Shown here: positions 9,201 through 56,294 of the stretch, piece after piece | Position numbering within the stretch: the stretch's first letter is position 1 | How the letters are laid out: each line of letters opens with the position of its first letter | Assembly (NCBI GenBank): GCA_965285935.1 | Contig: OZ260664.1 | Span: forward strand, 85,808,001 to 85,872,000 | From: Ophelia neglecta | Taxonomy: Eukaryota | Length of the DNA stretch: 64,000 bases | Direction of reading: 5' to 3' | Program-made: the position numbers and the translations under genes | Notes under the pieces: generated by a model | What the model was told of the DNA's origin: nothing | Database searches by the model: none | The model's input: the letters and a program-made list of their open reading frames with translations, nothing else

Positions 9201-10964
9201 GTCCTTAAACACACCTCACTTTATTGAATCAGATTACAAGGGCTTCTGCGTTCAATGTTGATCATAATCATGAACTGATTGACATGAACAAAATACACAT
9301 GACGATAGCTATCTGGCTTTGGCTAAAGTGTTATGCTTGATGCATACATGATGCACACAAGTCCAATAGTCCTGTTCAAACAGCCGGGTAATAAACACAC
9401 TGACTAGGGAACTTAAGAGTCTGAAATGTCAATAGTTTTCACTTGTGTAAACTCAGTTTAAGCATATTCATTAATTTACCTACTTCGTCGCAGCCTAATA
9501 CGTCTTATAAGAAATCCCAGAACAACATTAAACCGATTCAAAACTAATCACACATTATTATTATTTAGCGTTTTTAAGAATTAAATGTATAGTTAGATAG
9601 CTACATAAACTTAATGAAGATCAATTTCAAGGATGTGAGAAAACATGTATATATTCCTAAATTGGAAGTGACGTTGCATACATCAGGCGGACTAATAAAT
9701 AAAAATCTTGTAGTGTCGTTGAAATGCGATCCCCAAACCGACTACAGATAGTCAATATGGCCGACGCTCCGATTATATTTGGATGAAAAGATCAAAATAA
9801 TGCAGGGTGGGACCATCATCGGATGATAGCGTACAGAGATATTTCTGGTACATTAAAAAAGGATGAATTCCTTTTTTTGTTTTTCTTCCCAAAATTGTTT
9901 CATATACACATTTGCTTAAAACATATCACGCTACGGTCTAGTCACCGCAACCGGTATTTAATAAAAGAACCACTGCAGAGTTAAATTATGTTTTTTGCTT
10001 AATCGCCAAAGATATTGTATTTATGAATACAGTAACGTTTATATTTGCGCTGATTAATAGTATGCATCTGGCATTCGGTTATAACGAAATTTTGATACGA
10101 TATACGACCTGCTAGACACTCGTGCTCGAATCCCAGTTCGGAAAGTTTGAACTAAGTTTACACTATATGAGAATATTCATACGTTGACGTTTCAGATTCC
10201 AAGCTCGCTATTTAGGGTTCAAATGTTCAAAAAAGGTTCATGACGGTTCAAACTGGAATATCAGACCCAAGCTTTCTATGCGACTCTTTTTCTCAACCTA
10301 TCATTGTTGTCGGTGGTTAAACTTTTATCAATATTCCTTAGGAATGTTTCTATTCAAATATATACATAACATGTGTCCAAATACCGTCTCCGACTTTATT
10401 TACTACAAACAAAAAGATTGAAGTATACCATTCGCCAGGCAAGGCAAGGCAATCACATATTCCACTGTAAAAGTCTTCGTTCTATTCAAAAGCTGTGCGA
10501 TTTCAGGATGTCACTATATGTAATGTATTTTTGTGTGGAAATTAGTGATTGTGTGATTCATACTTTAAAGTATCCTTAAAATGATACTTGTTGTCGAGTT
10601 AGGGTATTTATGTTTGCCCAGCGGCGTGTAATTGCATAGAATACATTTGTTATTCAAATATGTTTATGAGAACCGTATTTGCATGTATTGTACCGTTTTA
10701 TTAGCTGTTGCGTTACATTTTAATTCGTACAATCATGTTCCCATTCATCACATTATTTAGAATAATTATTTTCAAATGTTCATAACACACTTAATTCGCC
10801 CATTCAACTGTCTATTTTCTTTCCAATCCACATATTCTTTGTTTCAATACCACATTGAGCTTTTCATCGTACTTAATGAAATCCCACTTTTCTGTATCAT
10901 ATTGCTTCTAAGTTTATGGGATGTAGTTGGTCTTTCGTGTTGCCATCCTGATTTTCCATACCAC

Positions 10965-13324
10965 CTAGTTACCGAGGAAAGCTTGTATCTTTACACTGAT
11001 GGTATTGAATGTTGGTCTCATATCAGGGTTGTAATTCCAACAGTCGCGCATAAGTAGGTACCTATATAACATTAAAAAAATCCAGGGAGGACTTGTAATT
11101 AAACCATTACAATGCAATGCTTGTGTCCAATAAGTTTGCTTGTCCTTTGGTGTACGAGTAATAACGTTGTACATAGGCTATTCAACATGGCTGTAAATTA
11201 CATACACTTCTCTCGGGTTGAGAATGCTTTTTGGTAGAATTGCGCCTCCGACAATTTCTTTAATAGCGTCGTTGCGGTGTTTATCCTTAAGAGGCTCACA
11301 TCCTACAGAAAGATATGTTTTAACTGGGAGTCCTTAACTCGGGCAGGCATAAATCGATGTTATTTTGCATAAAATATTAGTACATAATGAAGAAGCAAGG
11401 AGGGTAAAGTGATGGGTCGGTGATGAATATCCCATAAATTAACAACTTGATGTTGATACTCAAATCAAACATTGCATATGTCTAAACTTGTTCCCTGAAA
11501 TAATCAGCAAAATTTATTGAATCACATTTTATTACTTAGGAATTGCATAAAGCTTGAATTATTTATGTCCGTTTGCCCTGATCTTATAGAACTGTACGTG
11601 AGCGATCATGTTTTTCGTTTAATGATCGGGGCATGACACAAAATTAAATCTAGGCGTATTGAGCGCGTTCAAAATAATGATTATTAATATGTCTGGTATA
11701 CAATTAGTGAATAATAATTGGGGATTTACGGAACATATTGTTTGGTCGTTAAGAAATGCTTATGCTTTAGTTCCTACCATGATTGTACAACTGCCACATG
11801 ACTACTCCAAACGCCCAAACGTCGGCCGACTGCCCGTACATACCATAGCTCAAAGTCTCCGGTGGCAACAAACCAATGGGCCATGTGGTCATCTGCAAAA
11901 CGTCGTGTGAATACAAACAGCCAACATTGTGTTGATAATGTTATTTGGGGTCGCGATTGCTTTGTTATAAGAGATTATGTATTATTTGCTGGAGACAGAT
12001 AAAGTAAATCGTGCTTCCAAGGAGTAATGGCAGGTGTAGCTGGCTTTCCGCTCAACCTTTTAACCCAAATCTGATATTATCTGATAATATGAAGCAATTT
12101 GCTATTATACTGTAGCATTGAAATGTTTTTTATTAATTATTATTTTGTTACTGTAAGTTTATATTTACTATTTTTATTTCGAGTACGCATTGTAAATTTT
12201 GCATTATGTAACAGAAGCACAATTTGGCGCAGTATCGTGTCCAGTAAGAAATTGCATTTGATTTAAATATCTGTGGCATCCTATACAATGTTAAGAAAAT
12301 TGATAATATTAATATTGTTTTATATTATTGTTTGAGTATTTATTTGTATCCAGGGGAAATTTAAAGGAAAACTGAGTCATTTTCTATTTTACGTAAAGCG
12401 GCAATGGAAACAATTTATCGTGAAAATACATTGGCTCTTCCAAACGCAAATAAGTGAAATGATTTCGTGTTACATAATTGTTTTGGAACTCACATCGGAA
12501 TCAGACTTTTCACAGTAGTGTTTCTCAACATCTTCAGAATGCCAGAATCCTCTCAGTTGCACGTTCATATGATGGGTAAGTAAAACTTTCTTCAGACATA
12601 AGTTTGGATGAAGGAAGCTAGGCTAAACGTAAAGAAGGACACAATATACTTCAGTTACCGACAAAACTATATGATTAGATAGATCTGACTTATTATGTCA
12701 ACGTACCGTATGCGTGTGGAGGAAGTCCAGTGCCATTGCAATATCCAATGACCACTTCAATATGAAACTCTGGTAGCTTTCAACGCTGATGCTATTCACG
12801 ACAAAGCTTTCCAGGTCGCAGTTAGCGGCGTATTCGTAAAAATTGTAGAGATAATCTGAAATAGAGTTATAGCAGATCTAATTGGGTACAGTTATTAATA
12901 CTGAACAGATATTTGTGTACATTACATTGGTCAGCAGAAGCATTTAAATACCTGCTGTAATGGTATATCCTACAAATGGTATGATGTATGGTGAAGGTCC
13001 GCAGTGTACACATGCTTTCAACTCACTCGTGGCCAGCTTGTACTCGACAAGATTTCCAAAAAGATCGTCTGCGAATATTATAGACACATTAAGGATTAAT
13101 TTTTACAAAACGATATTCACCTTGATTAGCTAAACACGAAAATCTACCGGTACAAGTTTTTTTCGAAAAATATGAGCATACTAACTTCTTGTTCGCTTGA
13201 CAACAGCTGACGCTTGACGTGACTTTCGGTCAGCTGCTGTCCACACCACTTTGAAAACCTCATTGCTTATTTTCTCCCCAATGAGAAATGAATCAGGGGA
13301 TATAATCAGCAGGTCCGCATCCGA
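10965..13324 (-). CDS. Tyrosine-kinase-fold (pseudokinase) domain of gene A, 7 exons
   Basis: IGEKISNEVFKVVW (Gly loop missing), AVVK, SELKA, FLHPNLCLKKVLL (HRDLAARN position), VQLRGFW (KIxDFG position), WPIGLLPPET, DVWAFG, CWNYNPDMRPTF. Confidence 0.9.
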
Positions 13325-16300
13325 CTGCATATGAGGCAACAAAACATAGCTGGATCAATTTGCCGTAACATTACTACCAAAACTAATGGAACGTCAATAA
13401 AAAGTGAGCAATTCGTTTTCGGTTCACCCTGCTCTTAGTTATTCACTTCATAATTTCTTGGTCTTTGATGCACATGATAAATACACGATAAAATTGTATA
13501 AAATTTAATTACGTACCGCTTTTGTTTCAGCCAATCCAATATAAATGGCTTCGGAAATTCTCTTCTTAGAAATCTCCAGTTTTTCATAATCATTTTCGTT
13601 ATTTTGTGCATTTCCGAGCACAACCTCAATACAAGAAAAAACATGATGGATTTGGAATATAATAGAGATTAATTACATGCCTCTAAGGTTACTGAAATTA
13701 ATCGTTCCAAACTAACATCTTAATTAAACAAGGTAATATTGTGAACATACTTCAGCAGTATTTTCGTATACTCCATCCTTCTCAGGGCAAGTGGAACTCA
13801 TATCGATTATGTCAGCATAAACCGGCTCAGCGATAGCCGACACTTCATTTATCATATGAAATAAAGAGCTAGTATTTCTCTTTGCAGGCTAAGCATGGCA
13901 TTTTTGTAAAAATACACAACACGCAAACTTGCAATATGAAATATTTGCACCCAACTCACCAGGAGGCGGTGTTTTGCGTAAATGAAGAAATAGTAAGACT
14001 AAGAATATTATGATCGCAGCCAATGCCAAACTACCAAATATACCACCAAGTATCGCTCCTATTGGAGAATCTGAAAAATACAAAATTGTCAAACAATCGT
14101 TTGGTGGCATTCCTTCTTTGCTAAATACGTAAATTAAAACCCTTCTTTTTAAAAAAATGTTCTATCCTACCACTTGTATTAGAAGCTGATGGAGCAACTC
14201 TGCCATCTTGTTCATCACTGCCACCGGAAGCTAGCCCTGCGGCTTTCAGGAATGAATCCTCGTAGACGCATAACACAAATACATTGGTCTTCTGCAGATC
14301 AAAGTTTCCATGTCCAACTACATTTCTATCGGTTATATCGGAACCGCTGATATCATCGTTGATCGTCTTCCATCCACCACCACATACAGTAGACCTTTTC
14401 CTCCGAACACCCTGAGCCTGATGACGAAGCTCCAAGACATACGCCTCTCCTTGTACGTATTCCCAGGTCAGGTTTACGTAAGATGTGGTCAGCTCCATCC
14501 ATGTAATATGTACAATCGGAGTTGCTGAAGTGAAAATAGATACACTATTAGTATTGATTATTAAAGGTGCCATAACTATGTACGGATTCTTAACAGAAAA
14601 TAATGAATGTTTGAGCTTTTGACATTTTACACTGAATTGTTATGTAGACAAAATGTCGCAAATGTTAGATAGGCAATACATATATTATTTCCACAAACGG
14701 AATTTAAGCAACAGGGACGTTGATGAATGTCGGGAAGACGATTATATTTCCGCCCTGGAGTATAGCAGGTTCACATATCGATGATCGAATTACGTCGAGT
14801 GCACTTTAAGTGGTAGCCTTACTATTGATAAAGATCCATATGATAATACAATCATTTCAATAGCCAAAGTATTTCAATAGCCAAAGTATTTATTCGTCGC
14901 ACTTTAATCAAGGTTTTCAACTTAAAATGTCCACCCTTTCAACCGTTTCGTGGCAATGAGAAAGATGTGAAACTACATCTCAAGTTGTCTAGGTATCAGG
15001 GGAAAATTCCGAATTCCATGAAAGGGAATACAATTGGCCTTTACAATAAATACATACAACTCCAAGACAATTACTGGCAAAAAAACGTAGCATGTTCTAT
15101 GACAAGTCGACTTTCTCGTAGTATTGTACCTTTCTGACTCACCTCGTGTTGTTTGCTCTAAGTTGCTAGTTTCACTTCGGTCGCGCTGTTCACCATACTG
15201 ATTGTAGGCCACAACCTCGAACACATAACTAGTAGAGTTTGTAAGATCGGACACTCTGTTGGAAATCTTGTTATTGAGTAAACATTGTGTCATTATCCGC
15301 TCTTCTATAACCAACTCGCCTTCCTCAGTGCCATACAAAATAAAGAACATTTCCTCGTCTCCGCCATTGTATCCACATGTCCAACGGAGTGTAACGCTCA
15401 CAGATGTGTATTCCAGAACTTCGAGGTTTGTTGGTGGATGAGGCGGGCCCACCTCTACTAACTCGATTTTAAAATTGACATTATACTCGGCAGCCAGGAT
15501 GCTGTTCGATGCAGTACATGTGTAATTACCAAAGTGATCGTCTGTTACGTTTTGAATGGTCACTGTACTGTCCAAATAGGTCACATGTCCTGGGATTGCT
15601 TTTCCATTGAGTTGCCAGGAAAAGGATCCAGTTGGCTTCATACATACTTTACAGTCCAGAGTGGTTGAGTTACCAACAAATGCAGCATATATCTTATCAG
15701 CATTATTGCCTGCCCAAAGCGCAAAGTCTGCATAGAGGTAAATCAATTGGTTAAACTTTTGTCGGTGCTATATCTTAACATTTTAAGCGTATTCTATGAT
15801 TGAAATGATTGTTTAGGGAGTCTATAAAAACAACTACTGCACTGAACATGATATCGAAACAATGCATATAAAATATAAACGCTCAAAGCCTTCGATAAAG
15901 ATGGTGTTTAATACATTTATTTGAAAAAGTAATACTACGAGGTTTGACATTTATGGACACAACTCACAAAGCGTCTCCAGTGTAGTCGCTTTGGATGTGT
16001 CACTCCTTATTCCGTCTGTAGCTGTACATGTGTAATCCCCGTCAAACTGGGACACGTTGTTACACGTAACCCCATTCCGAGCTTGTTGAGGGCTGAGAGT
16101 GCTCGTGCAGCCGTAAGTCATCCCATAAGGAAAGGGGCCATCGGTTGTCGGGTGCCAGGCGTGTACAAACCGGAGATCATTTGTGATGTCAGATGACCCC
16201 CACTTCCATCTTACCCCGTCCAGATCGGGTTTTGCTGTCACGGTGCAACTAATGGATATTGAGGTATCATTGACAAGAAACAGTTTTGTCTGTGGAGAGG

Positions 16301-19300
16301 TCGGTCTGGTAAACTGGGGACCAACTACAATGGAAGGAATAGACGCCCATGAACGATTACTGATACATTTTAATATTCGGTCAGATGATCTGAAAGTATC
16401 ACGATACTTGTTCTAAATTATCCTACATTTGTCATTAGCATACGTATCACAGATTAGCAACCAAATCTATTAATATTTGGTGAATGACAGGCAGCATAGC
16501 TCTTTGTCATTTCAAGTACCGTCAGCGGATTTAATAGTATAGCTAATGCCCTACTAGTCTCAATGAGTATGATCTCATGTGAGAAATATATTTGCAAAGT
16601 GCAAAAGGGTTTTTCGTGCATGTGATCAGACAACATGGTTCCTGCATGACACATAGGTCCTTATCTTCTTGAATTCTATGTGCCCTGCCTTTGGGAGGGT
16701 TTATTCGTTAGGCTCACACGACGGTTGTGGGACCAGATAAAGACCAACTACCAGCCGACTTAGCTTAAAAGGTGGTTTAAATATGAGCCTTTCATATAAT
16801 TCCTGGTACTCCCCTATTTTTGACTCCTCTGAGATGCTCTTGAGTGCTGCATATCATCATTTACCGGTCAGGTTAAAACAACATGTTCGCCTTGAGCAAG
16901 CGAGATGGGTTGACAAAAATACCAATTCTTAAAGCATTTGTGATACAGAAATACCTGCTGTCTGGTATTTCGTAGCAATCTTCGGTGGACGACTCATCGG
17001 GAACAAGTCGGTTCTAACACTCAAGTGGCCAGGCGCCTCTCGACAAGTCGGCCTCGGTGAAGACCACTCTGTTCATGGAGGGTCATACCCCCCCCCCCCA
17101 TTGAAACTGGAGATTTTAAAAATTCCAAAGAAACAGTGCATATTATTAAATGTCGGATGATGTAGTATCGAATGAATACAGTAAACAGAGGAAGGTGTGA
17201 TGGTCAAAACGCACTTGTTTCATCAAATGACACGACTTTTCTGCCTAAACACATGGTTTATACGGGCCGTACGTGTTAAGACGCAACGGCTTTTCCAGAC
17301 AATACGGGCCGTACGTTGTGAAGCACCTACTGGTTGTACAAGAAGACCGTACCACCAGTGCTTACGCTCTGTTCACAACACACGGCCCGGCTGTGAGAAA
17401 TGTAATTGACAAGTGTTTTGCACGGCTTTTAAGTAGTAGCAACGTAGTAGATCGCGCATCGGTTTACCAAGACTGATCATTATAGTAAATTACACCAATA
17501 AGTAAGTCACATTACGCGCCCGTCAAACGCCACTTTTCCCTTATCATTACTTGGTTAATGTTCACAAATTTACTGTATGGGTACTTTACCGGTGTTACAG
17601 TTTTACTTAACGTGTACGGCCTGCGGTAGACCTGTGTTGAGACAGGAAAGCCATGTTATTTGTCGAAACAACTTGAATGCGTTTGGGAGGCATTACCTTA
17701 TATAGAAGCCGGCCCTCTCTTTTTAGCCACCGTGACCGGGACGTATTGGACAAATTACATAAAACATAACCAGATGGTTAAAATCAGTAGACCTACCGCC
17801 TGTTTACATTTACAGTGGCCCCTGTGCGTACATGCACACATCTATGCACGTACGGTGACGGAGGTTTTGTACAGCATAAGTGCGTGTTCATTGTTAGTTA
17901 GCCGTGTTTGTGAGGTACAAAACGCATTTGTTCACAACGCTTTGCTCTCTAAACACACGGCTTAAATAGGGGTCGCGCACTATATGAATAATATGTACTC
18001 AAATGTACACTGCAGGGGCGCTTCCTGTGCAAATGAATCATTCATTTTTTTTAGTAATTATCATAGCAGCTGGTCATTTGATTTATTATAATATCTTGTT
18101 CTGTAATTTGAGACAAAAAATAAAGTTTTTCTTCAAGAAATCAGTGAAATTGCATTTTTGTGGTAAAACTTGCTATAATAAGAAGTAGATGGAACTTACA
18201 GTGTTTAAAGGGGATAAACACTTTCAATTGCATATGCTGAAAAATTGAGCTGCTGAATGTGTGTTTAAACAATTTTATCCAATTGCTTATATAATTAGCT
18301 ACAAATTCATATTAATGAGATATCCCAACGGGTGTTTTCTTTTTTTTTCTTTTTTTTACTGTGCTATAGGCTAAAATGGACGCTTATGGCAAAATTCATG
18401 CCATGTTGTAACCAAAAGGCCTAGCGACCAACACTTTTAAGTGGGTATCTGGGGATGTGATACAAGTATTCGCCCAAAGACGGCCCTGTTGTTAAGAATT
18501 TCAAACACGGCTGGTTATTAAATCAAAATTTCCATGTCTGTATGCGTACGTATTATTATTATTTTAAGTCATAAGAAAGTTGTATAAGCTGAAGGTGTAT
18601 AGGCCTAGATTTAATGAGCAGACAGAGTAAGTGAACTGTATACAGTTTGCCAGATCGGCCGAAGTGACTGCTTGACCCTCTCGGTCTGTTCCACACTAAT
18701 AATAATAAGCAAAGCATGGGCCAACACTCAGAATGCCATCCAACAATTTGTTTGTACAAACACAATTTATCAAAGAGGGTCCAAACATATAATTCTTAAG
18801 TGTTTCTTATACTTACCGATGATGTCTAGTTGAGTATCTGCCGATACTTCTGATTTGAGCCGTCCAGTATATACCAGGTTAGAAGCCTGACAAGAGTATC
18901 CTCCGGCCTGATTAATATTTATGATGGAAATTTCAAGGGAGTTCTGATTGGTATCACCAGGGGGAGGTTGTACACCAAACCAGGTAAATACGTCTGCCTC
19001 TGGGTGACCTTTATCTGCCAGGTAACACGTCAAGGTCACATTGTCTCCAGCGTACACTTTCTGGTTTGAGAGCTGGAGGACCGGACGGGACGTCGAATCT
19101 GTGAATGGACAGAAAGGGGGTTGGTGTGAACCAGGCTTTCCTCGTGTAAATTGGCAGACGGCATATTGTACACATTTAGAGGTAATATATCTCATGAACG
19201 AACCCTATCATGAGTATTTCATAAGGTTTCCAGTGTGACATAGTTCTCTACGTCATTGTGGATTACTTGCCCGTAGAAAGGGAAAGACAATTGACTCAAC

Positions 19301-22300
19301 AATTTTAGGAAATGCAGATGGTGTGAAAACACTGTGCTAACAACCCAGAAACAAGGAGCAGTGAACATATTACTAGTTTGATTTGGTATAGATTGTCTTA
19401 GTCTTGACTTTCACTTGCTAGGAATATCCTTATCCTACCTCTATCAATATTAGATCAATATTATTTGTCGTACAAAATATGAATAATATAACAGGTATGG
19501 CATTTATTTCACGATAGTAATAAATTAATATAGCCCCGACTCATTTGTAAAAGCAGTGTGTGCCCTTCCTCTCGCCTGGAACACTTGGCCAGTGAAGGCC
19601 GGTGTTTATTAGACACATCAATAACATGAGACGCTCGGTTGTCGTAGCTAACCAGGGAGTTTGTTGTGTGATTCACGATAATAGCAAATACTTCTACTTA
19701 CATTGGACGTTAAGTTGGAGCTGTTGATTTCCTGCCGCCCCGATTCCGTTCATTCCGTTACACGTGACCGTCCCACTCGCCGATTTCCTGTCTTCTAGGT
19801 CGTTATTGGCCCATGTCAGAATAGAACCAGATACAGTTAGTAGATCACAGCTCCCTCCCTGGGTGTTGGTCATGCTATTCTGTTTAAGACCGTTGTCCTG
19901 TCCTGGAGACCAGGACCACTGGACTTCAGCAGCCGGCTTGGCGCTGTACGAACACTGGACGTCTACTGTATCATTGTTCAGGACAGTTAACTCGGCAGGT
20001 AAAGGTGTATTGACCATTAATGGTGGCACTGAAATACATCAATATCTTTGCTAAATCATGAAGTTATATGTTTGTTAAACACAATTATCGAAGCTTTTAA
20101 GAAAGAACAATTACCATTGACAATAAGCTGTACAGCCGCACTCCCGCCGACTCCCACCGTGTTATAAGGTGTACATGTGTAGGTGTCTTGCTGACATTCT
20201 GATGTCACGGTCACTGACAGTGTCCCGGCGTTGGTCTCTATAACACCACCTACTGACCTTGTCCAGTTCACACTAGATACAGGATTACCGGCGTTCCACG
20301 TGTCTCCAAGGTTACACATGAGAGATGCCACAGACTCCACTACGGCGGTCACAAGGCTGCTACCTGCCGTAGCCGACCCAGGTGGGACTGGAAACCAAAG
20401 TTATACAATTGATTTTCATCTAAAATGAAACACATATTAACAACAAAACTGGAGGCATTCCGTTGACGTTACTGCCGACGCCTGAAACGTGACTTAGCTT
20501 TGCCTTAATTAGTCTCATCTAACGTAGATATTCCTAGCCAAGTCTGTAGAGACTGTGAGAATAGCAACCCTATTTCTCGGTCCAGGGCTCGAACCTTGGT
20601 GAGGACCTATTTTTGTGTTTGTACATATAACCTTACATCGAATTACGTACAGTTTTGTGTTGATTATCTCTACTTGTCAATTGCACTATTTCTTTTAGTA
20701 AATGGAGCTTTACCAGCATTTGTCAAACTGAATGTGAAGCCTGTACGTCGCGCATAGTATGTGTTGCGGTGGTTTGGGCGGGTCGTTTCGTCATTCGTGT
20801 CATAGGTTCCCCGAACTGCGACAGCCGACGTTATTTTGATAAAAGGCGATAACATTGCATCCAGCGGGTAAAACATCAAAGACACACGAAACCGTGGACA
20901 AAACAACGTGAACGTCGAGGGGTATTCCAGTAGGTATTAGGCATGTTAGTTTTCAGGAAGCGCCTATATTTTGGGAGGATGACAATCGGGCTATTGGAAT
21001 AATAATATTATAGATTATTGGTTCTATATCAGTAAGCCCCTAATCTTTAAAATGTCTTCTGTTTTGAAACATACCGGGCAGCTTTACACACCGCGCGATA
21101 TGATTTTGATTACTCTATATACGTTCTTACCGTGTGTGATACAAACCTGAAAACAGTCCGAGCTGTAGTGAACAGGGATTATATTCCTAAAACAATGTCC
21201 CCGCGGTGACGGACGTAGCCACAAAAGTATCGCGATCTGCACTTTTCATAGAAGTTAAATGAAGACCGTACAAGTAAGGCGAAGTATGTAACAGGCGCAC
21301 GTCCTAGATTGGTGTAAACGTGTGGGTGTCCCCTGGCTTGGAAGTCCCCCTTGCTACATTTACTAATCATTACCCCCACTGGGACCTCTCGCTCTTTAAA
21401 CACTAGTATTTGAAATCTGACGGGGTATAAATCTTAGTAATCAGGGATCCGGCCTGCAAATAGTGATTTATTACGTCTCCCGGTGGCAAAACAGTTTTCT
21501 TGGGGCATTGTTATCCTATAGGTTTTGAGTTCTGGGACTGGTTAACCTTTTAAACCTAACACTCATTCACTCGATCTATTACCTTCAATTCCATTTGGGA
21601 ATGTACGTAAGATTAAAACTTCGCCACTTTGACATTAGATGGCCAGTGAAAAGCCATATGAAATATATCACTCTGTAATTAACAATATGTTATCCATCAG
21701 AAACCGTGAATTCCCGAAACGTTCATCTTAAAAACTTTATACATGCTGAAATATAGCAACAATCTTTATAAGGGTTCTTAATCAAAAAGCAGAACAGCCT
21801 GTCTAGCGGCACCTAGAGACAGTACAAAGAAGGAAAAGGGGTAATGTGAAATAAAGATTGGATTATTGTCGTATCTATAGGCATAAGAAAAGTCCCACTT
21901 ATGTCAGAGTATTTTTCAGGGCATGGCTTTACATGAAGGGCCCAAAGTTCACTTCTTGTGACATGAAAGGGTGTGTTTTTTATGGTTATTGTCTCCCCAG
22001 ATCCTTTTGTCTGTAAAAAGAGGCAGATCAATACATATTTAGAAACAGATTCATCCAGATTCAGGCATATTTTGTTTCACTATTATCGCTGTTTGTCAGG
22101 TTTCGGTGGATCTATGGATCCATTGTTGTCGCATAGTTACATGCATGGGTCTATATTTCGCACATCCCGTCACAACAGGCCCTATACGCCCCTCCCCACC
22201 ACCACAACCACTGCGACCGACCCCAACACCCACAGGGATCATCCCTCTCCCGTGTTCACCCTTCCCACTCCTTGCCCTCCTCCTTACTTCAGTACCCCCC

Positions 22301-25300
22301 CCACCCCACCCCCCGACCCCCCAACACACACTCATAGCCTCCGCTGGGCCCGTTTTCGAAAAGAAAATCACTGTGAAATAGACGTGGCATGTGGATGGAA
22401 TATATTTCAGCTTCTGACTTCACAAGAAAGAAGGCCATAGTTTGATGTGTGCAAGCGTAAACTGAATGCTACTACGGCAAAACAACTTCCGCTGTACAAA
22501 ATATATGAATATCCACATCACTAAATACTTCTGACATGTTGCGATGTTATATTCATCTGTGATGTGATTCAACAAATGTATACATACATTGCACATCTAA
22601 CATTGTTGTCGCCGATACAGTCACGTTATTAGCTCTAGCCACACACGTCACGTCTCCCAGACCATGTTTTCTCTGTTCGGCCGTCGTACCAGATTTCCAC
22701 CCCAGTGTTAAGGTAGTCCGTGTTAATATGTCACTAGGCCCCGTATTGGAAGTAGAGGTCTGGGTATCAAACAATCCCACCTGCTCAGAAGTCGTGGGTT
22801 CCCAGGACATTACAGCGGCGGGTTTAGAGTCCACAACACAATCTACGGCCAAGCTGTCGGTGTTCTTTAACGTTACTTTGTTTGTAACCGTCTGAGCAAA
22901 GGACGGAATGACTGAAAGAAAAACTAGCCGAACTAACCCGGCGAAATAATCTCCACTTACACAACAATTTGTTAGCATAATAGCACGAAAGACCACAATA
23001 TTGAATTGTAAAATGGTAATAACGTAGTGGACAGCGTACCATTAACGTTGAGTGTGACATCGCCTCCCGGACCGTCTCCAATGGCGTTTCTAATGTGACA
23101 CGTGTAGACATCTTCCTGTGTGACACTGTTCAATGTTATGGACAGGTTACCGTCATTAATAACATTGTACTGAGCGTCTTTACTCCGTGTCCACATGAAC
23201 TGCTGTCCGGCCGGGTTACCTCTGTCATACTGTCCAGTCCCAAACCCACACCTCAGTGTCACTTGGTCACCAATAACTGCTGTCACACTGGGTGTTAGTA
23301 CACGAGGTATCCCTGGTAAGTCTAGTAGCATACAGGGATTAACACATGATAAAGAAACATTTGAATTCACAGATGTATCTAAAAAGATTCAATATGTATG
23401 TTCTATTTCCAGACTATAAAACGAACACATTATATTGCAGTGAGTTGTTGCGTTTGCACTAGGCATATTATCAGTGGCGAAAAAAGACACGTTAACGAGC
23501 GGAAGAAAAGTTCATTGATAAACCAATGTAATAATGATTTTGTCTACAATGTGTTTCAAGTTTATGTATAATAAACAAACGTTAGTGTTTTGAGATGACG
23601 TTGATGAATCACAGGAAATATGACCCGCCCAGATTCTCGTTCAAACCAAACGCTTGGAAAATTATTAAACTTATATCAATACACACACTGTACATTCAAG
23701 ACAACATCATGGGTGGTCGTTCCATCCGCAGTCTCTCCTGTACAGGTGACGTCACCGGACGCTCCTTTCCTAAGGTTAAGATCAGAACCTGGCATCCAGC
23801 TCAGTGTCTGTGAGGATTGTGTCAGGAGTCCTCTGGTCCCGGTACTCGTACTGGGTAAAGACGCCGGAGAGAACACGTTTTGTTGGGCGGATGTTAAAGT
23901 CCAGGTTACCGTCGACTCAGGTCGGGCGTTGAAGGAGCACACAAACTGCCAGTTGTCGTCTGTGTTGATCACATTCGCTACACTTGGCACGGACGGATCA
24001 ATTCCTGGTTTTGCTGAATGAATAACGGAAACATTGATGTAAGCTGACCACCGTGGGGGGGGGGGGGGGGGGGTTACTCGGAAGTCACGCCAAACGAGAC
24101 GGATTCGATTCTTTTCTCATTAACACACTTAATTCACGCCAGTGCACTATATTTGTTATTATGTGGCGATATACAAGGAGTGTACCAAGGTGATCGTGGC
24201 CTATTGGTAAATATCATATAGTATGTGATGGGTACACGTACACTATGTTCCTGCTCACCTAGTGAAATAGTTTTATAATGGCGCCTACCTCTGACATCCA
24301 CCTCGATCTGAGCGCTGGGGCCCAGGCCGATGGTGTTCCCTGGTTTACAGCTGTATGTGTCTGTGTAGGTATAGTCTGTCAGTGTTAGAGACAGAGACCC
24401 ATCACTGCCGTCTCCGTCTACAGTCCCGCTTACCCGGGACCAGGTAAAGGTGGCTGGCGGGTTTCCGTCATCGTCTACTCTACACTCCAAAGTCACGACC
24501 GACCCCTCCAAGTTGGAGATCGGGGGAGTAACTGCTCTGGCTGCACCAGGGGGGTCTGGATAAAACAAAACTGTAGTGTTTAATAGGGACAGACACGTAA
24601 TAATAATATGAGGGACGTGTTGGAGTGAGGGGAGGGGGGGGGGGGGCATTGGTGTAGTAGCATCTTCTGTCAAAAGATATCAAGAAAGCAAATCCTCTCC
24701 TCCACTAATCCTCGCCTAGCTATATCCAATCCCATTTTTCATTAATTGATCACGTCCCTTATTTCGTCCCTTATTTCGGGACCACAGTTAAGACAACCTT
24801 CAGTGTTGGTTTTGTTGTTCATTGGCTCTCTAAAGAGGGTCTTAATACGATATATGGTGACAAGGTAGATTGATACATACATTGTACATTGAGAGTATAC
24901 ACATTTGAGTCTTTCTGTGCGGCCCGCGGTGCCGGTTGTTTGGCCCGACAGAACACTCCATCTCCCTGGCTGGCCCTACTCGGCCACAACTGGAGGACGG
25001 CGGTCGTTGAGTCTGATAGAGAGACGTTTTGTGTTATCTCCTGGACATTACCCTGTCCCAGGTCCCAATACCACCCCAGGGTGGCGGGGGGAGCGGATGG
25101 TGCCACCACACATGTCAGGGTAGTAGGCTGGTTCTCTCTCATGTCTATGATAGGCCCTGCGTGGTCCGTTATCACTGGCCTGCTGACCTCCACTGAAACA
25201 CAATCATGTATGATTTATCTTACGGAATGTTTGCATTAAATGTGCTTAATATAATAAAGGCGCGCTTACAGTATTTGGCTGGTTTCATTCATTCCTTACC

Positions 25301-27353
25301 GAACTGAGTTAATGTGGTAGCCTTGAAGGGATCGCCGTTATTGATTCCGTAGATACAGAACCATGTCGTCAAGTCTTTAGCCATGTCGATGTCGTTTATC
25401 TTTATCTCAAGGAAGAACTGGTCCCCTGAGGTATCACATTTTACATATTCGTATCTTCCATCCAGACAAGCTCCGTTTGTTAAGAACCCGCTGTTAAAAC
25501 TTATGTGACAATTTGCACATATATCATGTTCCTGCGACGGGTCACTTGAAAATCCAATCGTTATTTCGGGGACACTTGACAGTGGGCTGGCAACACATGT
25601 CAAGGTCACTTCATCCGTCGGCTCCACGTACTCTGGCAAACTTGTGAAGTTAATAGTTTCCGCCTCGACTCCACCTGTATAGTGAATCAAACGAATGATA
25701 GAAAATATTAATAGATCAGCTCTTAATAATAATAAGCCTTAGGGCACTCCTTTGAATCATTTGAATCAAATCGACCGATAAAAAGTAGAAGCTAAGGTTT
25801 GAATTGTGTTTTCAAATTCAACCTATATACGTTCATGTTTTAAAATGTCACAACACTTAAATTACGAATTCTTTGAGGGAAATAACTTGAGTTTAGATCT
25901 ACATTTGGATTCTAAAGGAACACACATTTTACCGAGTTTTTAAATTTCAGTCGAGACACTTGCACTTGAAAGTCTAGCCACTGGCTTTCTTAGCACAACT
26001 AGCATTTAGCTTAAGTATTGCTTTAAGGGTAGAAATATATTTATTTGGTGGAGTGAGGTTGTAAAACCCTTGTGAAGTGTCTTTGGTCAGCAAAGATGTG
26101 GCTTTTAATGGATGTGAGAGATTTGATGGTTGTGAAGTTGGAAAGGGGGTCCCGCTTATTAAATTACCATCATTGGAATTGGGAATAATGATATTCGAGC
26201 AAACGATAATAAATGCAAGAAGTCACATGATCTAGCTAACGTCATACGAGGTTCAAATGGCATAGCTATGTTGCAAACTCTGTCTGGGCATATGGGGAGA
26301 GATAAGAGACGGGGTGGAATGATTGGGTGGGATACATATGGGATGAGAGTCAGACGGTGGCAAGAAAGAGACGGGAGAGAAAGAGACGTGTTGTAAGCCA
26401 GAAAAAGCTAGGGAGAGCGAGCGAATAATCAAGTCAGAACCGAATGTCAGAGTATCGTTGGCTTACAATTTTAATCTGGAGGTCGCCTCTCTATCTCTCT
26501 CATAAATTATAACACATATTTAGAAAGCGGATCTTACACATATTTCCTGCAGTTGCGTATGTTCGTACCTGTTTGGAGAAACAGAATTAATTCGAAATCT
26601 TCGACTGCATTAACTTCCAAATTCAAACGAGCAATTTAACATATTATGATTATCCTTATCTGCTCATCGCAAAAACTTTTACAAATCCGCGGCACAGAAT
26701 ATAAAAAAAATACGGAATAGAAAATTTACAAACATTGTATCCTACTGAATCGTGGAGAAAACGTGGCAATTTTACCTGTTTTTGTTACACAGGGTAGCCA
26801 TGCCGCACCGAATAGACCATAAATAGCCAATAGCGGTGTTTGCCGCAATTCCTCAATTTCAGAACAGTACCATCACGTGTCTCAAAATTGTTTACTAATC
26901 ATAATCATGTTACCTAAATTATACTAATCATAATCAAGGCAATTCGGATATATTTCCTGCTTTGTTAGCCAATCACATGCCGGTTCGGCAAACTATATTA
27001 TTGCCCTTCGTGCTGTGGACAGATCAGGAGGTGGCACTGCATGGAATAATTACTATTTAGGTCACTGCAATATTTAAATATTGACTCCGCAGATTAAAAC
27101 TGCATTTTCCAAAATCACAGATAAGTATATTCCACCAATACTTCATCTAAGTTAAAAACACGACTTGGGGACCTATAGTGTCTCGAGAAGAGTCTATATA
27201 TTATCGAAGACTCTCTTTAATACTGCAAATATATAGTAATGGTAACTCACAATGGCTGATTCCGTGCATAAGTAAGTGGATGAAGACGTTCAGAAATATA
27301 TCAAGGAACAGCAGGTGGCCCTTTCGGACGCTAATATAATGTCCAAATGCCAT
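10965..27353 (-). CDS. Gene A: Ig/FN3 receptor tyrosine-kinase-like pseudokinase (SP, 11 Ig, 2 FN3, TM, ITAM-like motif, dead TK domain), about 1,770 aa, 23 coding exons
   Basis: Hand-spliced GT-AG exons with consistent phase: 27353-27251 (probable signal peptide, less certain), 25674-25300 (V-type Ig), 25192-24881, 24555-24289, 24013-23687, 23321-23040, 22911-22588, 20387-20115, 20028-19702, 19098-18817, 16324-15968 (Ig), 15727-15143 (Ig+FN3, WTCGYNGG...YVFEVVAYNQYG), 14524-14171 (degenerate FN3), 14070-13960 (TM IGAILGGIFGSLALAAIIIFLVLLFL), 13842-13751, 13624-13517 (juxtamembrane), 13324-13186, 13068-12952, 12855-12707, 12622-12494, 11892-11778, 11302-11206, 11061-10965 (kinase: DIAMALDFLH, PPET, ADVWAFGVVMWQL, CWNYNPDMRPTF). 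No internal stops. Confidence 0.9.
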
Positions 27354-30300: not shown

Positions 30301-33300
30301 ATATAGGCCTATATACTGTAGGAAGCATTGGTGCACACCAAATAAACAGGCACTAAGAGACACGCATTTCTTTTATGTATATTATGAAATATGACCAACA
30401 TATTTTCAGAAAGAGGTTTCCTCAAAGATATGACGTAATCCAGAGAACCACTAAAATGAAGCGAATATCAGTTTCCGAGAGGGAGCCGTTATTGGCCTCT
30501 ATTAATGATGACGATCACCGCCAGGCAGCGACACCAGATTACTCGACCCAGAATGAGGACAACGACCAGACCAGTTGCGCCACAAAACGGCCCCGGTGGG
30601 CCAGTACCTACTCGTACGACGACACTACTTACCAAACATTGAGACGGCGCCATTGGAAGAACCTTATTCTACTTGGAGTATCGTTCCTTGCTGTGTTCAC
30701 TTCATACCAATCTCTTCAAGTAAGGCTGCATGACAGGACCAGAGACTGCGCCATATTATTTTGCATGTCTTGGTTGGGGTCGAGATTGGGTGGGGGGGGG
30801 GGGGGGGCATAGGTTATTGTATATCATTATACATCTAATATCTTGGTAAGCAAATATTGCTAGCCATTGAGGGAGCCCTGAGAATCGGCGTATATTACCA
30901 AACAGCATGATTGCCTAAAATTATATAGATTAAGAGACCAGCTCAAAATGTGTTATAACTGTGAAACTCAAATATTGAATTTACTCTACCATATCATTAT
31001 TTAATTTTCACACTTAATCTTTATAGCAACATAAATAAGCTAAAACTTGCATTGAAAACATACGTTTTAATCTCAGTTATGTTTGGCCTGCCAGCCGGCA
31101 GGAACGTATAATTGTACTGCTGTTCAAACGTATGCTATCACGTGTTAGGCAAAATTATGACATGTGACACACACCATTTAGTAGTACCCATTTATGTTTC
31201 TGGACTAAGACGTATATCTTACCTATTGATTTCGCTGTATCCAATCCTGTTTTATTCCCCTAAAATAACCGACACAAACAAAATCATATCCTCCAACCCC
31301 TAAACCAATTCATACACTGTTTCGTGTAGCTTTGATTTCCACCGTATTTAGAACTGTCCTTACACTCTAACTGGGCTATTGTTTCTATTTATTTATGTTG
31401 TTTGATTGTCACATTTTTTGATTCTCAGAACCTAGAAAGCACGTTGAACCGCCAGGGGAGTGTAGGTCGGCTGGCTATCGGGGTATTATATGCTGGTGTG
31501 ACCGTAGGGTGCCTGGTGGCGCCAATTTTGATAGAGAAAGTCGGCCCTAAGTATGGGATACTCAGCGCCATGGTGGCTCAGGTGGCCTTTGCTGCTGCTA
31601 ACTTCTACCCCCGTCTGGCCTTGCTGATCCCAATAAGTTTGGCCCTGGGGGTCACTTCAGCCTTCATGTGGATTGGAGTGGGTGTATACATCACCCGGCT
31701 TGCCATCAGCCACGCCCGGCTACTGGAGGAGGACGACACCGCCGTCCTTACCACCTTCAATGGCATCTTCGTGGCGTTCTTCCAGGGAGCCCAGGTGGTG
31801 GGGAATCTGATCAGCTCTTTAGTGCTCCACATCGGACAACACACTTATCGTAATGGGACTGTTAACTCTACGGAGGAGAGTGTATGTGGCGCTTCTTTCT
31901 GTAACTCCGGGAACTCTTCTGGGAGACACCAGACGGAGCCACCCGAGAGTCAAGTATATATGCTGTTGGGTAGGTATGTTTAATAGCTAACTTAATTTAT
32001 ACCATATTTACTCTATTTGTGTATTTATCTATTCTGATCAGTTCTTATTCTGATACTTAATTTATGCGTATAAGTTTATACTATAAAGGTGTGTACACCG
32101 GATGTTGTGTTTTGGCGACTTTAATCACACTGTGTGGAGTTGACAGTAAAATTACATCAGAAGAGGATGGGGAAGGTCAGACAGCTGTTTCTTACATATC
32201 ACTGCACTTTTAATGCCTCCCGTGATATTGCCTTAATAATGATAATATGGAACAGTGATATTGTTCGCCATCGGTATAGACTTTTAACATACTACTCGAT
32301 ATTCCCAAATCACCAATTTTGCCTAACGTTATTATACAAATATTATTATCGTTCAATTATTGTCCCTTATTTCAATATAATTTTTGTCAAATAATGCATT
32401 TAGACGGAGCCCCTAGCAATAGTTTGTGTCGCCGCCTGTTAGCAACATAGACCAAACACACAGATCCAATGGTCACACTACTTCTGCCACTATTTCTGTA
32501 CAACGGGCTGGAGCAGAGTTTCCTCGCGGGTGATTATACTCAGGTAAATTTTATTTGAAATAACTAGTTATTAAATACTGATATTCCTCAGGCAGGGACA
32601 CGATGTGGGTGCGGAGGCTGGGCTGGTGGCAGGGGTTGGGGTTGGTGGAGGATGGATGAGACAAAGCGTATGAAGAGATCTTTCGACAAGGATTATCCAC
32701 TGTTATCCTGTGTTCACAATGTGACCGGTTAGATGTACCAATTCACAATGAACCCAGACCTCAATCTATCATGCTTAAATAGCACGTTGACCTATAACCA
32801 ATTAAAGCTGCAACACAGCATTTCAACTGATCATTTCACTGGTCAGTTAAACCCAAGAGTATTAATAGTTTATTGGCAGATCAAATTACAAAACTAGTGT
32901 GGGAGTGACCAGCGTAGATTGTGGGTAGGGTTGTCAAGTTCTGGCCGTGGTATATATTGCAGGGAATTTTTGCCTTCGAAGCACAAGAATAAGATGTCAT
33001 TTCCTCTATGAAATGTCTATTCAGACAAAATACAGTCACAATACAGCCTCAAAATGGAAATAAAGTCGTAAATTATTGAAGAAAACGGGGGATTTTAGGA
33101 TGTTGCGGGAGAGCGGAAGAAGTAAATTGCAGGGTCCCCTAGCGTAGTCGGGGCACTTGACAGGCCTTTTAGGGTGAAATATACCTACGCGGAAGTGGGC
33201 GAGTCTAAGTTGAGGATGCGGGGTGGTGGGGGTGGGGGAGATTGGGTTGGATTGTGTGTGTGTATGGGGGGGGGGGGGCGCTGCGCTTACATAGAAAGTG

Positions 33301-35289: not shown

Positions 35290-37428
35290 TTAGGGGGAGA
35301 ATGCCTGCAGCTGTGCACTATTTTCGGCTTGTATTTGCTCAACTTTCAGACGGCGAGTTTTATAGAGGGTGAGGGTAGCATTGGCCAGACGGGCATACGT
35401 CATGTAATCGCATTTAGCTGTCGGGTCGGTATGTCCTCCCAACATAATCGTCGTTAGTTCCTTATAGTCCATTGATGGATCGATATGTATAATACCAGTT
35501 AGGATAGTCATCAATTGCACTCGCTCGGCATTCAATGAATTGCATGATAGCAAAAAGTGTTCGGTTGTTTCTTCACACCGGGTGCAAAGTGGGCATATTT
35601 TTTCATTAGGACTAGGCTGTTTCTCGCAGTTCTTTATGAATTGCCCCCCATGACAGGCAAGGGCCGACTCACATATAATCAATTTCGTCATAAGTCTACA
35701 CGCGTTAAGACTCCACGGGAGTTTAGCTGCCACCTTCCACCAAATGTAGAGTTCTGGTTGACTTGCAATTTGACGAAGGTCGGTCATTTTTTTGTACATA
35801 AGCAAGCTTCCTCTCCACTGCTGCCTAGTAGCTTCATCCACTTCTTGTCTGATCATCCTCTTCCAGACATTTTTGCTAGAAACGTCACCAGACGACAGAC
35901 AGTGTTCTAGTTCCTCCTCCAACTTGTATTTAATGCATGTTTTGTACATGAGTGCTATCGGCCCTTTGTTTTCCCACTTCGTCTGAGTTTCCACAATTCT
36001 ATTGATGGTAGTTTCCCTCAATATTGATCCCGCTGGCTGGGCCAACAAACTACGAAGCATCAGAAGCCGGTGGTAATCTAGCTCATTTTCAATGGGTCTC
36101 CATCCCATTAGTGCGTAGGCTGCGGGGTTACACGCTTGTTCTGGAAGGCATTGTACTTTCTTTGCCATTTCCCGTTGAGCTTTCTCAAGTCTCTCTATTT
36201 GAGTGTCGCTTAGATCCAAGAGTTCCAGGCCGTAAATGAGTGATGGTAGTACTATTGCCTTGTACATCTTGTTTGCGATAGCGGGCTGCAGACCCTGTTC
36301 ACCAGTGCCTAGACCAAACATTGCGTTACATTTTCGTCTCGCCTTGCTTATCCTGTCATCTAGATTATCTGAGATGTACCGCGGTGAGTGGGATAACGGG
36401 ATTCCGAGATGGATGCACCCCGGCTTCACTGGTAATTGCTGATCGTACAACACAAGTGATTTGGCAGCACCCTTGGGAAAATGGAGGTACACAGACTTTG
36501 CGGGATTAAAACTAAATCTCCATTTCTTACTGTACTTCAAGGTTATATCCAGTGTGTCCTGAATACTCCTCCCAAATAGCGCTAGAAACGATACGTCATC
36601 TGCAAACATTGGGTTATTACACTTGGATTCATACAGATGAGCTCCATTTCCATCCTTCTCGGTCTCAGAGAGTAATCCGGCCGCGAATATCTGGTAAAGC
36701 CGCATGGACATTCGGCCTCCCTGGAACACGCCCTGAAGAATCCTGAAAGTCTCAGACACAAAACGTCCTACACGCACAGCACACGTGAGGTTCGAATACC
36801 ACACCCCTAATATTCTCCATATTTTACTGTTGATACCAATTTTGTACATCTTATATAACAGACCATTGATCCAAACCTTATCAAATGCTTTACTCGTATC
36901 TAGAAGTACGCAGTGTACTTCCGATTGTCTCTCCAGGTTAAACTCGATAGTTTCTCGGACTAACAGTGAGGTGTGCTTACTGGAGCATCCGGTGAAGGAT
37001 GCGCCTTGGAGTCTTTCTAGTCTATCGTTCTGTAAAAGCCATGGGTCTAGCCTTAGGAGCATTACTCCTTCAAATACCTTGCATAATATTGTCAGTAGAG
37101 TCACTTTTCTGTAATTATCCTGGTTTTGAGTGCACTTGTCTCCTCCTTTGAAGAGGGGTATTGCCACGCCCTTGCAGAAGTTTTGTGGAACTCGCTCCCA
37201 TTTGACAATTGAGTTTATAAGAATTGTTATTGCTCTAATGGCAGCCCTTCCTCCGAATATGACATGTTCAGGGTCTATAGAGTCATAACCTCCAGACTTC
37301 CCTTTCTTTAAGCTCGATATGGACTTCTCTACTTCAGCGTCTGTTATGCGGTCTGTTAAGAATTGGCAATTGTTAAACATCGACTTTTCTTTCATTTCAG
37401 TAACCTGCTTTTCTGAATTCGTTATCAT
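35290..37428 (-). CDS. LINE ORF2 C-terminal part (reverse transcriptase and zinc knuckle)
   Basis: KSGGYDSI, NYRKVTL, LDTSKAFDKV, GVFQGGRMS, FADDV, FNPAKS, HLGI, CPLC...HFLLSC. Confidence 0.92.
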   Translation of the reverse strand: MITNSEKQVTEMKEKSMFNNCQFLTDRITDAEVEKSISSLKKGKSGGYDSIDPEHVIFGGRAAIRAITILINSIVKWERVPQNFCKGVAIPLFKGGDKCTQNQDNYRKVTLLTILCKVFEGVMLLRLDPWLLQNDRLERLQGASFTGCSSKHTSLLVRETIEFNLERQSEVHCVLLDTSKAFDKVWINGLLYKMYKIGINSKIWRILGVWYSNLTCAVRVGRFVSETFRILQGVFQGGRMSMRLYQIFAAGLLSETEKDGNGAHLYESKCNNPMFADDVSFLALFGRSIQDTLDITLKYSKKWRFSFNPAKSVYLHFPKGAAKSLVLYDQQLPVKPGCIHLGIPLSHSPRYISDNLDDRISKARRKCNAMFGLGTGEQGLQPAIANKMYKAIVLPSLIYGLELLDLSDTQIERLEKAQREMAKKVQCLPEQACNPAAYALMGWRPIENELDYHRLLMLRSLLAQPAGSILRETTINRIVETQTKWENKGPIALMYKTCIKYKLEEELEHCLSSGDVSSKNVWKRMIRQEVDEATRQQWRGSLLMYKKMTDLRQIASQPELYIWWKVAAKLPWSLNACRLMTKLIICESALACHGGQFIKNCEKQPSPNEKICPLCTRCEETTEHFLLSCNSLNAERVQLMTILTGIIHIDPSMDYKELTTIMLGGHTDPTAKCDYMTYARLANATLTLYKTRRLKVEQIQAENSAQLQAFSP

Positions 37429-56000: not shown

Positions 56001-56294
56001 GGCAATATGCGATGGTGATGTAATGGATATGGGAGAAGGGTTTCCAATGTCATTGTAAGTGTTCTACGAATTGTCAATAGTTCTGACCACATTTATGTCA
56101 CAATATGTTGTATTCAAATGTTGCTTAGATGTACGTGGGACAACGCCCTGAGAACGGGAGCTGCTATTAAATTTGGCTCTTTTTCTTATAGTGAAATGTA
56201 TATTCGAGTTTGTTGGAGATACGAGCAGGACAAAAGACCGAGTTTTTCTAAAATAACGAACAAATTGAAGTCGCTGACCTACAGAATGAAATGA
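47030..56294 (+). CDS. Gene C: Ig receptor tyrosine-kinase-like pseudokinase (SP, 5 Ig, TM, ITIM-like and ITAM-like motifs, dead TK domain), about 920 aa, 16 coding exons; paralog of gene A
   Basis: Exons 47030-47084 (signal MINALACLMCLLRLLSSA), 47216-47572 (V-type Ig), 49776-50096, 50840-51106, 51190-51510, 51647-51919 (Ig), 52201-52311 (TM LAVIIGGTIAAVIFAATIVIVLVVL), 52429-52547, 53643-53744 (juxtamembrane), 53884-54019, 54350-54460, 54556-54704, 54937-55059, 55283-55397, 55958-56054, 56192-56294 (kinase: NIAQAFDYLH, PPET, SDVWAYGILIWQI, CWRYEQDKRPSF). Cytoplasmic intron positions and phases match gene A. Confidence 0.9.
53884..56294 (+). CDS. Tyrosine-kinase-fold (pseudokinase) domain of gene C, 7 exons
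   Basis: LGKHLRKGAFKVIW (Gly loop missing), AVVN (beta3 Lys lost), NGLKA (alphaC Glu lost), FLHPCLSLYQILL, AKLKGFW, WPVRHLPPET, DVWAYG, CWRYEQDKRPSF. Confidence 0.9.
55670..55913. mobile_element. MITE (non-autonomous DNA transposon, Mutator/MULE-like) with 9-bp TSD in an intron of gene C
   Basis: TIRs GGCATACTGGAAAACCTGATACGAAAT and ATTTCGTATCAGCTTTTCCAGTATGCC (1 mismatch in 27). Perfect TTCCTTTTT duplication at 55661-55669 and 55914-55922. Internal inverted GATACGA and telomere-like TAGGGT/ACCCTA repeats. Confidence 0.88.

Follow-up and report, generated by a model that had tools for sequence, protein, structure and literature searches.

The window analyzed here, a 64,000-nucleotide stretch of the Ophelia neglecta genome, contains a minus-strand gene (gene A) that was modeled as 23 exons running from position 27353 to position 10965 and encoding 1773 aa without an internal stop. 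The exons form a single open frame and are separated by GT-AG introns throughout; the joints between them are those predicted by the model. Introns were covered in the listed contigs from public runs (three runs, one sample), among which no joint was found at any modeled gene A intron. The predicted protein has the layout of a receptor tyrosine kinase, in which a signal peptide and an ectodomain of 11 Ig domains and FN3 domains (one clear and one probable) are followed by a single transmembrane helix, two juxtamembrane exons, and a tyrosine kinase domain of seven exons. A DNA search revealed three further copies of gene A at 92 to 97% identity (the near copies). A paralog from subfamily C of the family described below, gene B, lies on the plus strand at 47215 to 56294, with a D1 exon at 47215 to 47571 and kinase exons at 53884 to 56294. 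Between genes A and B, long minus-strand open reading frames of 715 and 543 aa (35290 to 39284) presumably encode a LINE reverse transcriptase and endonuclease, and plus-strand exons at 30357 to 31983 belong to a multi-pass membrane protein, which we take to resemble UNC93/MFS.

The predicted signal-peptide exon of gene A (27251 to 27353) has an ATG, a hydrophobic core, and a phase-1 GT donor, and it is present in two of the three near copies. It is followed by D1 (25300 to 25674), the N-terminal and most variable Ig domain, and by D2 to D10 (15968 to 25192), nine Ig domains that each occupy one phase 1-1 exon: D2 to D5 at 25192-24881, 24555-24289, 24013-23687, and 23321-23040, and D6 to D10 at 22911-22588, 20387-20115, 20028-19702, 19098-18817, and 16324-15968. 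Pfam Ig matches at E<=0.01 were obtained for eight of these nine domains. The next exon (15143 to 15727) encodes the last Ig domain together with the clear FN3 domain (Pfam Ig_3, 3e-11; fn3, 1e-8). The second FN3-like domain (14171 to 14524) is probable; a Pfam search of this exon gave no fn3 match, and its FN3 look-alikes in the atlas, all under 0.9, serve as a lead. The near copies vary in Ig number, with one lacking D3 to D6 and another lacking D7 to D9 and most of D6; in the third, D4 contains a gap of one base.

The amino acid identity of D1 among the near copies is 64 to 87%, while that of their kinase domains is about 95% or more. To model D1, 24 D1 exons (22 of an initial 23, one being left out because of a stop, and two from subfamily C) were supplied to AlphaFold2, and the resulting model had a pLDDT of 81 and a pTM of 0.77; folded without an alignment, D1 reached a pLDDT of only 43. 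The best structural match was CEACAM1 (Z 12.1; rmsd of 2.5 over 103 residues), and further matches included nanobodies, nectins, antibody V domains, DIP, and RIG-5. Residues C26 and C106, corresponding to the B-F disulfide of a V-type sandwich, are invariant in all 24 sequences. A Pfam search of D1 returned no V-set match. D1 is predicted, on the basis of the structural model and its matches, to adopt a V-set Ig fold.

On the cytoplasmic side, the transmembrane exon (13960 to 14070) encodes a hydrophobic helix and then basic residues. The first juxtamembrane exon (13751 to 13842), with the tyrosine motifs YADI and YENT, is a predicted exon whose splice sites are found in all three near copies and whose acceptor in gene A, AAG, is weak. 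The second (13517 to 13624) carries an ITAM-like motif, YEKL-x11-YIGL (13588 to 13532), with tyrosines Y1470 and Y1485.

Kinase domain of gene A

Gene A had originally been predicted, from 12494 to 13324, to encode a kinase without a Gly loop, a catalytic Asp, or a DFG Asp, with an open frame across seven exons. This range holds only four of the seven, namely, K1 (13186 to 13324), with a degenerate Gly loop and the beta3 Lys; K2 (12952 to 13068), with the alphaC helix and its Glu; K3 (12707 to 12855), extending from the hinge to alphaE; and K4 (12494 to 12622), with the catalytic loop. K5 to K7 lie at 11892 to 10965: K5 (11778 to 11892) contains PPE and the alphaF motif DVWAFG, K6 (11206 to 11302) the alphaG region, and K7 (10965 to 11061) alphaH to alphaI and the stop, with no C-terminal tail. 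The introns between K1 and K4 (13185 to 12623) are 117, 96, and 84 nt long; each length is divisible by 3, yet the introns have in-frame stops, and the divisibility is probably due to chance.

The kinase domain was aligned to an HMM built from 35 canonical tyrosine kinases modeled in the same genome (E of 4e-39). In the spliced frame, HPNLCLKK (12610 to 12587; aa 1633) takes the place of HRDLAARN and GFW (12550 to 12542) that of DFG, as had been proposed; in the HMM alignment, the catalytic Asp is replaced by N, the Asn of the catalytic loop by K, and the Asp of DFG by G. The proposed retention of the beta3 Lys (AVVK, 13198) and the alphaC Glu (SELKA, 13024) was likewise confirmed, and the domain also has its His, the Glu of APE, and the Asp of alphaF. 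The claim about the Gly loop held in part: GEKISNEVFK (13279 to 13250; aa 1509) lacks GxGxxG, but the G of GEKIS is most likely the Gly preceding beta1, with the loop shortened, the register of the Gly loop in these alignments being uncertain. A search with PF07714 matched K5 over the cut-off (E of 6.5e-8) and K7 at an E of 1.8e-4. No HRD, DFG-like, or GxGxxG motif that an alternative exon might supply was found for the kinase region in the six frames of 10000 to 27000.

The motif exon K4 is not an assembly error, because a public-run contig, possibly from the same sample, spans 12421 to 12629 and matches every letter; an assembly artifact was ruled out by this contig and by the near copies. 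A pseudokinase is defined by sequence as a kinase fold that has lost at least one of the VAIK Lys, the HRD Asp, and the DFG Asp (as given in PMC13519141), and gene A has the fold and the Lys and has lost both Asp residues. Lacking the catalytic and the Mg-binding Asp, the gene A kinase is predicted from its residues to be incapable of phosphotransfer.

Family, selection, and relatives

A genome search with exon K4 gave 31 matches among 34 candidates, comprising 29 cluster-type loci and two distant ones. The cluster-type loci are located mostly at C7 85.1 to 86.8 Mb (27 loci within 1.7 Mb), with one at 82.9 Mb and one on the small contig C33. Additional distant members were found at C7 28.7 and 13.5 Mb, and the distant members total 4. 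Each of these counts is a minimum, and any locus that lies on a small contig could be a haplotig. Four subfamilies (of 4, 14, 3, and 8 loci) make up the 29 cluster-type loci, with 36 to 51% kinase identity and equal exon phases. Across the 33 loci modeled, the His is present in every case and the HRD Asp and DFG Asp in none; all 29 cluster-type members have GFW, and the other 4 loci have GFL. Subfamily C lacks the beta3 Lys and the alphaC Glu, both of which are also gone from gene B (38% identity to the gene A kinase domain), and subfamily B lacks the alphaC Glu. From these alignments, the loss of catalytic residues is old and common to the whole family.

Seven open kinase exons were present in 20 of the 29 loci, and the other 9 are broken or incomplete, with frameshifts, stops, or exons absent from the 10 kb taken. 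The family has undergone tandem birth and death. D1-type exons were also observed without a nearby kinase exon at C7 85.25 to 86.93 Mb (L091, L092, L100, L103, L105, and L108); these may be missed members or kinase-less decoys. Upstream of the subfamily B loci L029 and L027, whose kinases are near-identical, lie two D1 types (L089 and L094, respectively) that are only 41% identical, suggesting domain swapping in subfamily B, with D1 and kinase linked by position only.

The open frame across seven exons had been read as a sign of selection, for which an open frame is by itself insufficient evidence. Among the 20 intact kinase domains, 51 columns are invariant and the C-lobe is the best-kept part, while synonymous sites are largely saturated between subfamilies. 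Omega for the kinase was 0.32 family-wide (20 sequences) and 0.47 in subfamily B (P value of 2e-10 against 1), but in subfamily A, which consists of gene A's own four copies, it was 0.76 and not significantly under 1 (P value of 0.41). The kinase exons of gene A differ from those of the three near copies at 7, 22, and 25 of 843 sites (0.8 to 3.0%), with no indels, and the introns at 59 of 1866, 143 of 1853, and 136 of 1833 sites (3.2 to 7.7%), a divergence 2.5 to 4 times lower in the exons (Fisher P values of 1e-4 to 5e-8). Across the family, these rates demonstrate that purifying selection acts on the kinase fold, and an apparently dead fold has long been maintained; for gene A itself, recent constraint is suggested by the exon-intron contrast only. 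Site tests (M2a over M1a), in our own implementation with relative branch lengths fixed, indicated positive selection on D1 in subfamily D (9 sequences; P value of 4e-6) and in B1 (5 sequences; P value of 3e-5), values that gene conversion can inflate. No significant positive selection on D1 was detected in A (4 sequences; P value of 0.32) or B2 (4 sequences; P value of 0.69), and none was detected by the same comparison in either of the two kinase sets tested.

To search for relatives, a K4 profile was run against 1.84 billion proteins, yielding 11 matches, of which 3 are fragments the size of an exon and without a name and 8 are long proteins; 6 of the long proteins are named as non-animal or fish kinases, mostly with several domains. 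Through one of the fragments (P0011), nine Ig-receptor pseudokinases with FLHPGLSTKK were reached. Of the nine, seven belong to records named as sea cucumber (for example, KAJ8041341.1, XP_071852881.1, and XP_071843116.1), which automatic annotation had called Eph-like, Cad96Ca-like, or uncharacterized. When exon K3 (2 candidates) and the K4 alignment (2051 candidates) were used to look for homologs, no match reached E<=10, which is weak evidence given the short queries. Like the gene A family, the sea cucumber proteins have an Ig ectodomain, a FLHPxLxxKKV/ILL loop, xxED[AV] after the DFG position, and FGFR as best solved relative; they are sister to the gene A family in the best trees. In contrast, identity is only 25 to 32%, they mostly retain the DFG Asp and lose the beta3 Lys and alphaC Glu, no FN3 match was found in the four examined, and all six (P0013, P0014, P0015, P0017, P0019, and P0020) carry a C-terminal YxxM. 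This takes the form YxPM at the end of each of the six, possibly a PI3K dock, and is absent from gene A.

In a 57-row tree, in which kinase names, as in all trees here, are our own assignments from motifs and tree, the sea cucumber proteins joined the family and the distant EF group in one clade (98/97). This clade lay within the RET/FGFR/VEGFR group (95/90) and apart from PTK7 and RYK. With all columns, the family grouped with the sea cucumber proteins at 93/88. The motif exon was then removed, because the sea cucumber proteins had been found through it, and near-duplicates, outgroups, and unrelated kinase families were left out of the smaller trees. Without this exon, the grouping with the sea cucumber proteins was recovered at 94/93 (44 rows) and 93/84 (31 rows, C20), and placement in the RET/FGFR group at 87/95 under C20; in the 44-row tree, with long outgroups present, the group shifted beside the outgroups and the RET/FGFR placement was gone. 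In AU tests (27 rows, without the motif exon), a grouping of the family with RYK was rejected (P value of 0.013), while a grouping with PTK7 (P value of 0.24) and exclusion of the sea cucumber proteins (P value of 0.36) were not; branches in the grouping with the sea cucumber proteins are long. Several active RET-like kinases of the same genome surround the family in the trees. The genome also encodes a separate PTK7-like gene, with HRD kept, and a RYK-like gene; in none of the best trees did PTK7 come out as sister of the family. Orthology to RYK was ruled out by the AU test and the separate RYK-like gene. Collectively, the trees tentatively place the gene A family in the RET/FGFR group, a placement that depends on columns and outgroups, and suggest a common origin with the sea cucumber HPxL pseudokinases. 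The source genome itself is that of a lophotrochozoan: its mitochondrial COX1 reads AAA as Lys, ATA as Met, and AGR as Ser, in agreement with table 5 and in conflict with the echinoderm code, and its Hox cluster contains signature peptides of Lox5, Lox2/4, and Post2. Among other kinases of the genome, four DDR-like genes were observed on C2 (L118 to L121), and a large clustered family of kinase open reading frames of about 300 aa, with HRD and DFG intact and beginning past the Gly loop, was observed at C9 15.8 to 17.5 Mb, C1 136 to 140 Mb, and C5 113 to 116 Mb (L144 to L146).

Proposed function and known systems

The ITAM-like motif of gene A recurs across the family, with YxxL-x11-YxxL found just N-terminal of the kinase in all four subfamilies and in 25 of the 26 loci with a modeled K1 (3 further loci have no K1 model). 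No double-tyrosine motif was apparent in the distant EF group, and of six sea cucumber proteins only one had such a motif, with a different spacer; none of the six has the x11 form. In a study of Draper, the ITAM is given as YxxI/L-x6-12-YxxI/L, with tyrosines Y934 and Y949, and is required for binding of the tandem SH2 domains of Shark after phosphorylation by Src42A (PMC6219719). The gene A motif lies within this x6-12 definition and beyond the vertebrate-type x6-9 given in PMC9546547. The same genome contains an SH2-ankyrin-SH2-kinase gene of the Shark type as well as Src-like and Syk-like kinases, named by us from motifs and tree.

The scaffold role first proposed for gene A overlooked the family of about 30 genes, the conserved ITAM-like motif, and the variable V-set domain. 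We consider it somewhat probable that gene A encodes a single-pass receptor of an expanded RET/FGFR-group pseudokinase family, with an inactive kinase, that likely serves in recognition and signals via the ITAM-like motif. We infer that D1 would bind a varying ligand (microbial, damaged-self, or allogeneic), that clustering would lead a Src-family kinase to phosphorylate Y1470 and Y1485, and that the tandem-SH2 kinase Shark or Syk would dock there and replace the missing catalytic activity, with the dead kinase domain acting as a docking or packing module. The invariance of kinase columns despite saturated synonymous sites was counted in favor of this explanation. Counting against recognition are the lack of significant positive selection in gene A's own D1 subgroup (P value of 0.32) and the use of V-set Ig tips, as of tandem arrays, in adhesion and in the wiring of nervous systems too. 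More tentatively, and on balance doubtfully, the family may represent an undescribed group of Ig receptors with dead kinases, one that descended from a RET/FGFR type before the protostome-deuterostome split and gave up its own catalysis for ITAM-Shark/Syk signaling. Independent expansions in lophotrochozoans and in echinoderms would then have produced clustered repertoires with variable domains, a germline-encoded immune or self-recognition system on a receptor tyrosine kinase framework.

Gene A could instead be a developmental adhesion or wiring receptor like PTK7/Off-track or Dpr/DIP, its paralog diversity being a cell-identity code with no immunity involved. The joining of a long Ig chain to a pseudokinase, the resemblance of D1 to nectins, CEACAM, DIP, and RIG-5 as much as to antibodies, and the AU result for PTK7 without the motif exon (P value of 0.24) are in line with such a receptor. 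However, the separate PTK7-like gene with HRD never grouped with the family in the best trees, and a conserved wiring code agrees less well with the frequency of pseudogenes and with the positive selection on D1; we regard this reading as unlikely. It seems rather less likely still that gene A is a co-receptor of an active kinase from the RET/FGFR group, in the way that EphB6 serves EphB4, with the partner phosphorylating its juxtamembrane tyrosines or being allosterically tuned. No active partner was seen in the cluster, because none of the 137 listed PF07714 matches (E<=1e-8; 128 of 922 candidates scored) lies in C7 82.9 to 86.9 Mb, and the fixed tandem tyrosine spacing points to a tandem-SH2 reader; this has to be set against the EphB6 precedent (PMC8454701), the position of the family among active RET-like kinases of the genome, and the C-lobe, its best-kept part.

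The kinase-like domain might also be a decaying relic, with gene A a young copy under relaxed selection, as the nonsignificant omega of 0.76 in subfamily A and the 9 broken loci of 29 would allow. We find this improbable, given that near-copy kinase exons differ by 0.8 to 3.0% against 3.2 to 7.7% for introns, without exon indels, and that the replacement motifs are unchanged across saturated subfamilies. Like WNK or POMK, the domain might retain cryptic catalysis through residues that have moved. Such cases are known (PMC13519141), and the retained beta3 Lys and alphaC Glu and an invariant Asp (D1659) four residues past GFW would lend themselves to it. We find this highly improbable, given that the ATP site is not conserved family-wide, with subfamily C lacking the Lys and Glu and subfamily B the Glu.

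For the preferred reading of gene A as a recognition receptor, a literature search of abstracts and listings found no paper on such a family; kinome supplements of sea urchin, oyster, and annelids may list the genes. The word "pseudokinase" is absent from the available part of the oyster kinome paper (PMC4883820). A single dead receptor kinase would be ordinary, but about 30 in a cluster, each combining a diversifying V-set domain with an ITAM spaced as in Draper and with a dead kinase that has been conserved, make a concrete candidate for variable recognition receptors, which are poorly known in lophotrochozoans. If correct, this reading would describe a route from growth-factor receptor to immunoreceptor, and if the echinoderm link holds, the family would be as old as Bilateria and masked by wrong automatic names.

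Other receptor tyrosine pseudokinases are known as single or low-copy genes, from which the gene A family differs in its roughly 30 tandem copies, HPxL/GFW signature, V-set tip, and ITAM-like motif. PTK7/CCK4/Off-track keeps HRD, has DFG alone altered, and has an Ig-only ectodomain, whereas gene A has HPN in the place of HRD and contains FN3. The ectodomain of Draper is of the EGF/EMI type, and Draper is not known to contain a kinase domain. The resemblance to the Drosophila Draper-Src42A-Shark system, as described in PMC6219719, lies in ITAM tyrosines 15 residues apart and a Shark-type kinase in the genome. With PTK7, RYK, ROR, EphB6, EphA10, and ERBB3, as presented in PMC13519141 and PMC8454701, gene A shares a single-pass architecture and a kinase fold without catalytic residues. 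EphB6 is a pseudokinase receptor reported to signal by phosphorylated juxtamembrane tyrosines (PMC8454701), and those of gene A are likewise likely SH2 docks. The 41 Alr genes of Hydractinia sit together in a single genomic cluster and encode V-set, I-set, and FN3-like domains, a transmembrane helix, and ITAM/ITIM tails (PMC9546547). Clustering and the combination of V-set and FN3-like domains, transmembrane helix, and ITAM are common to both, a likeness of layout that does not imply homology; unlike for gene A, no kinase domain is described for Alr in the available part of PMC9546547, and allorecognition has been shown in Alr alone. Receptor pseudokinases were already known as a class, and what is new here is the protostome case, the 30-gene census, and the selection tests.
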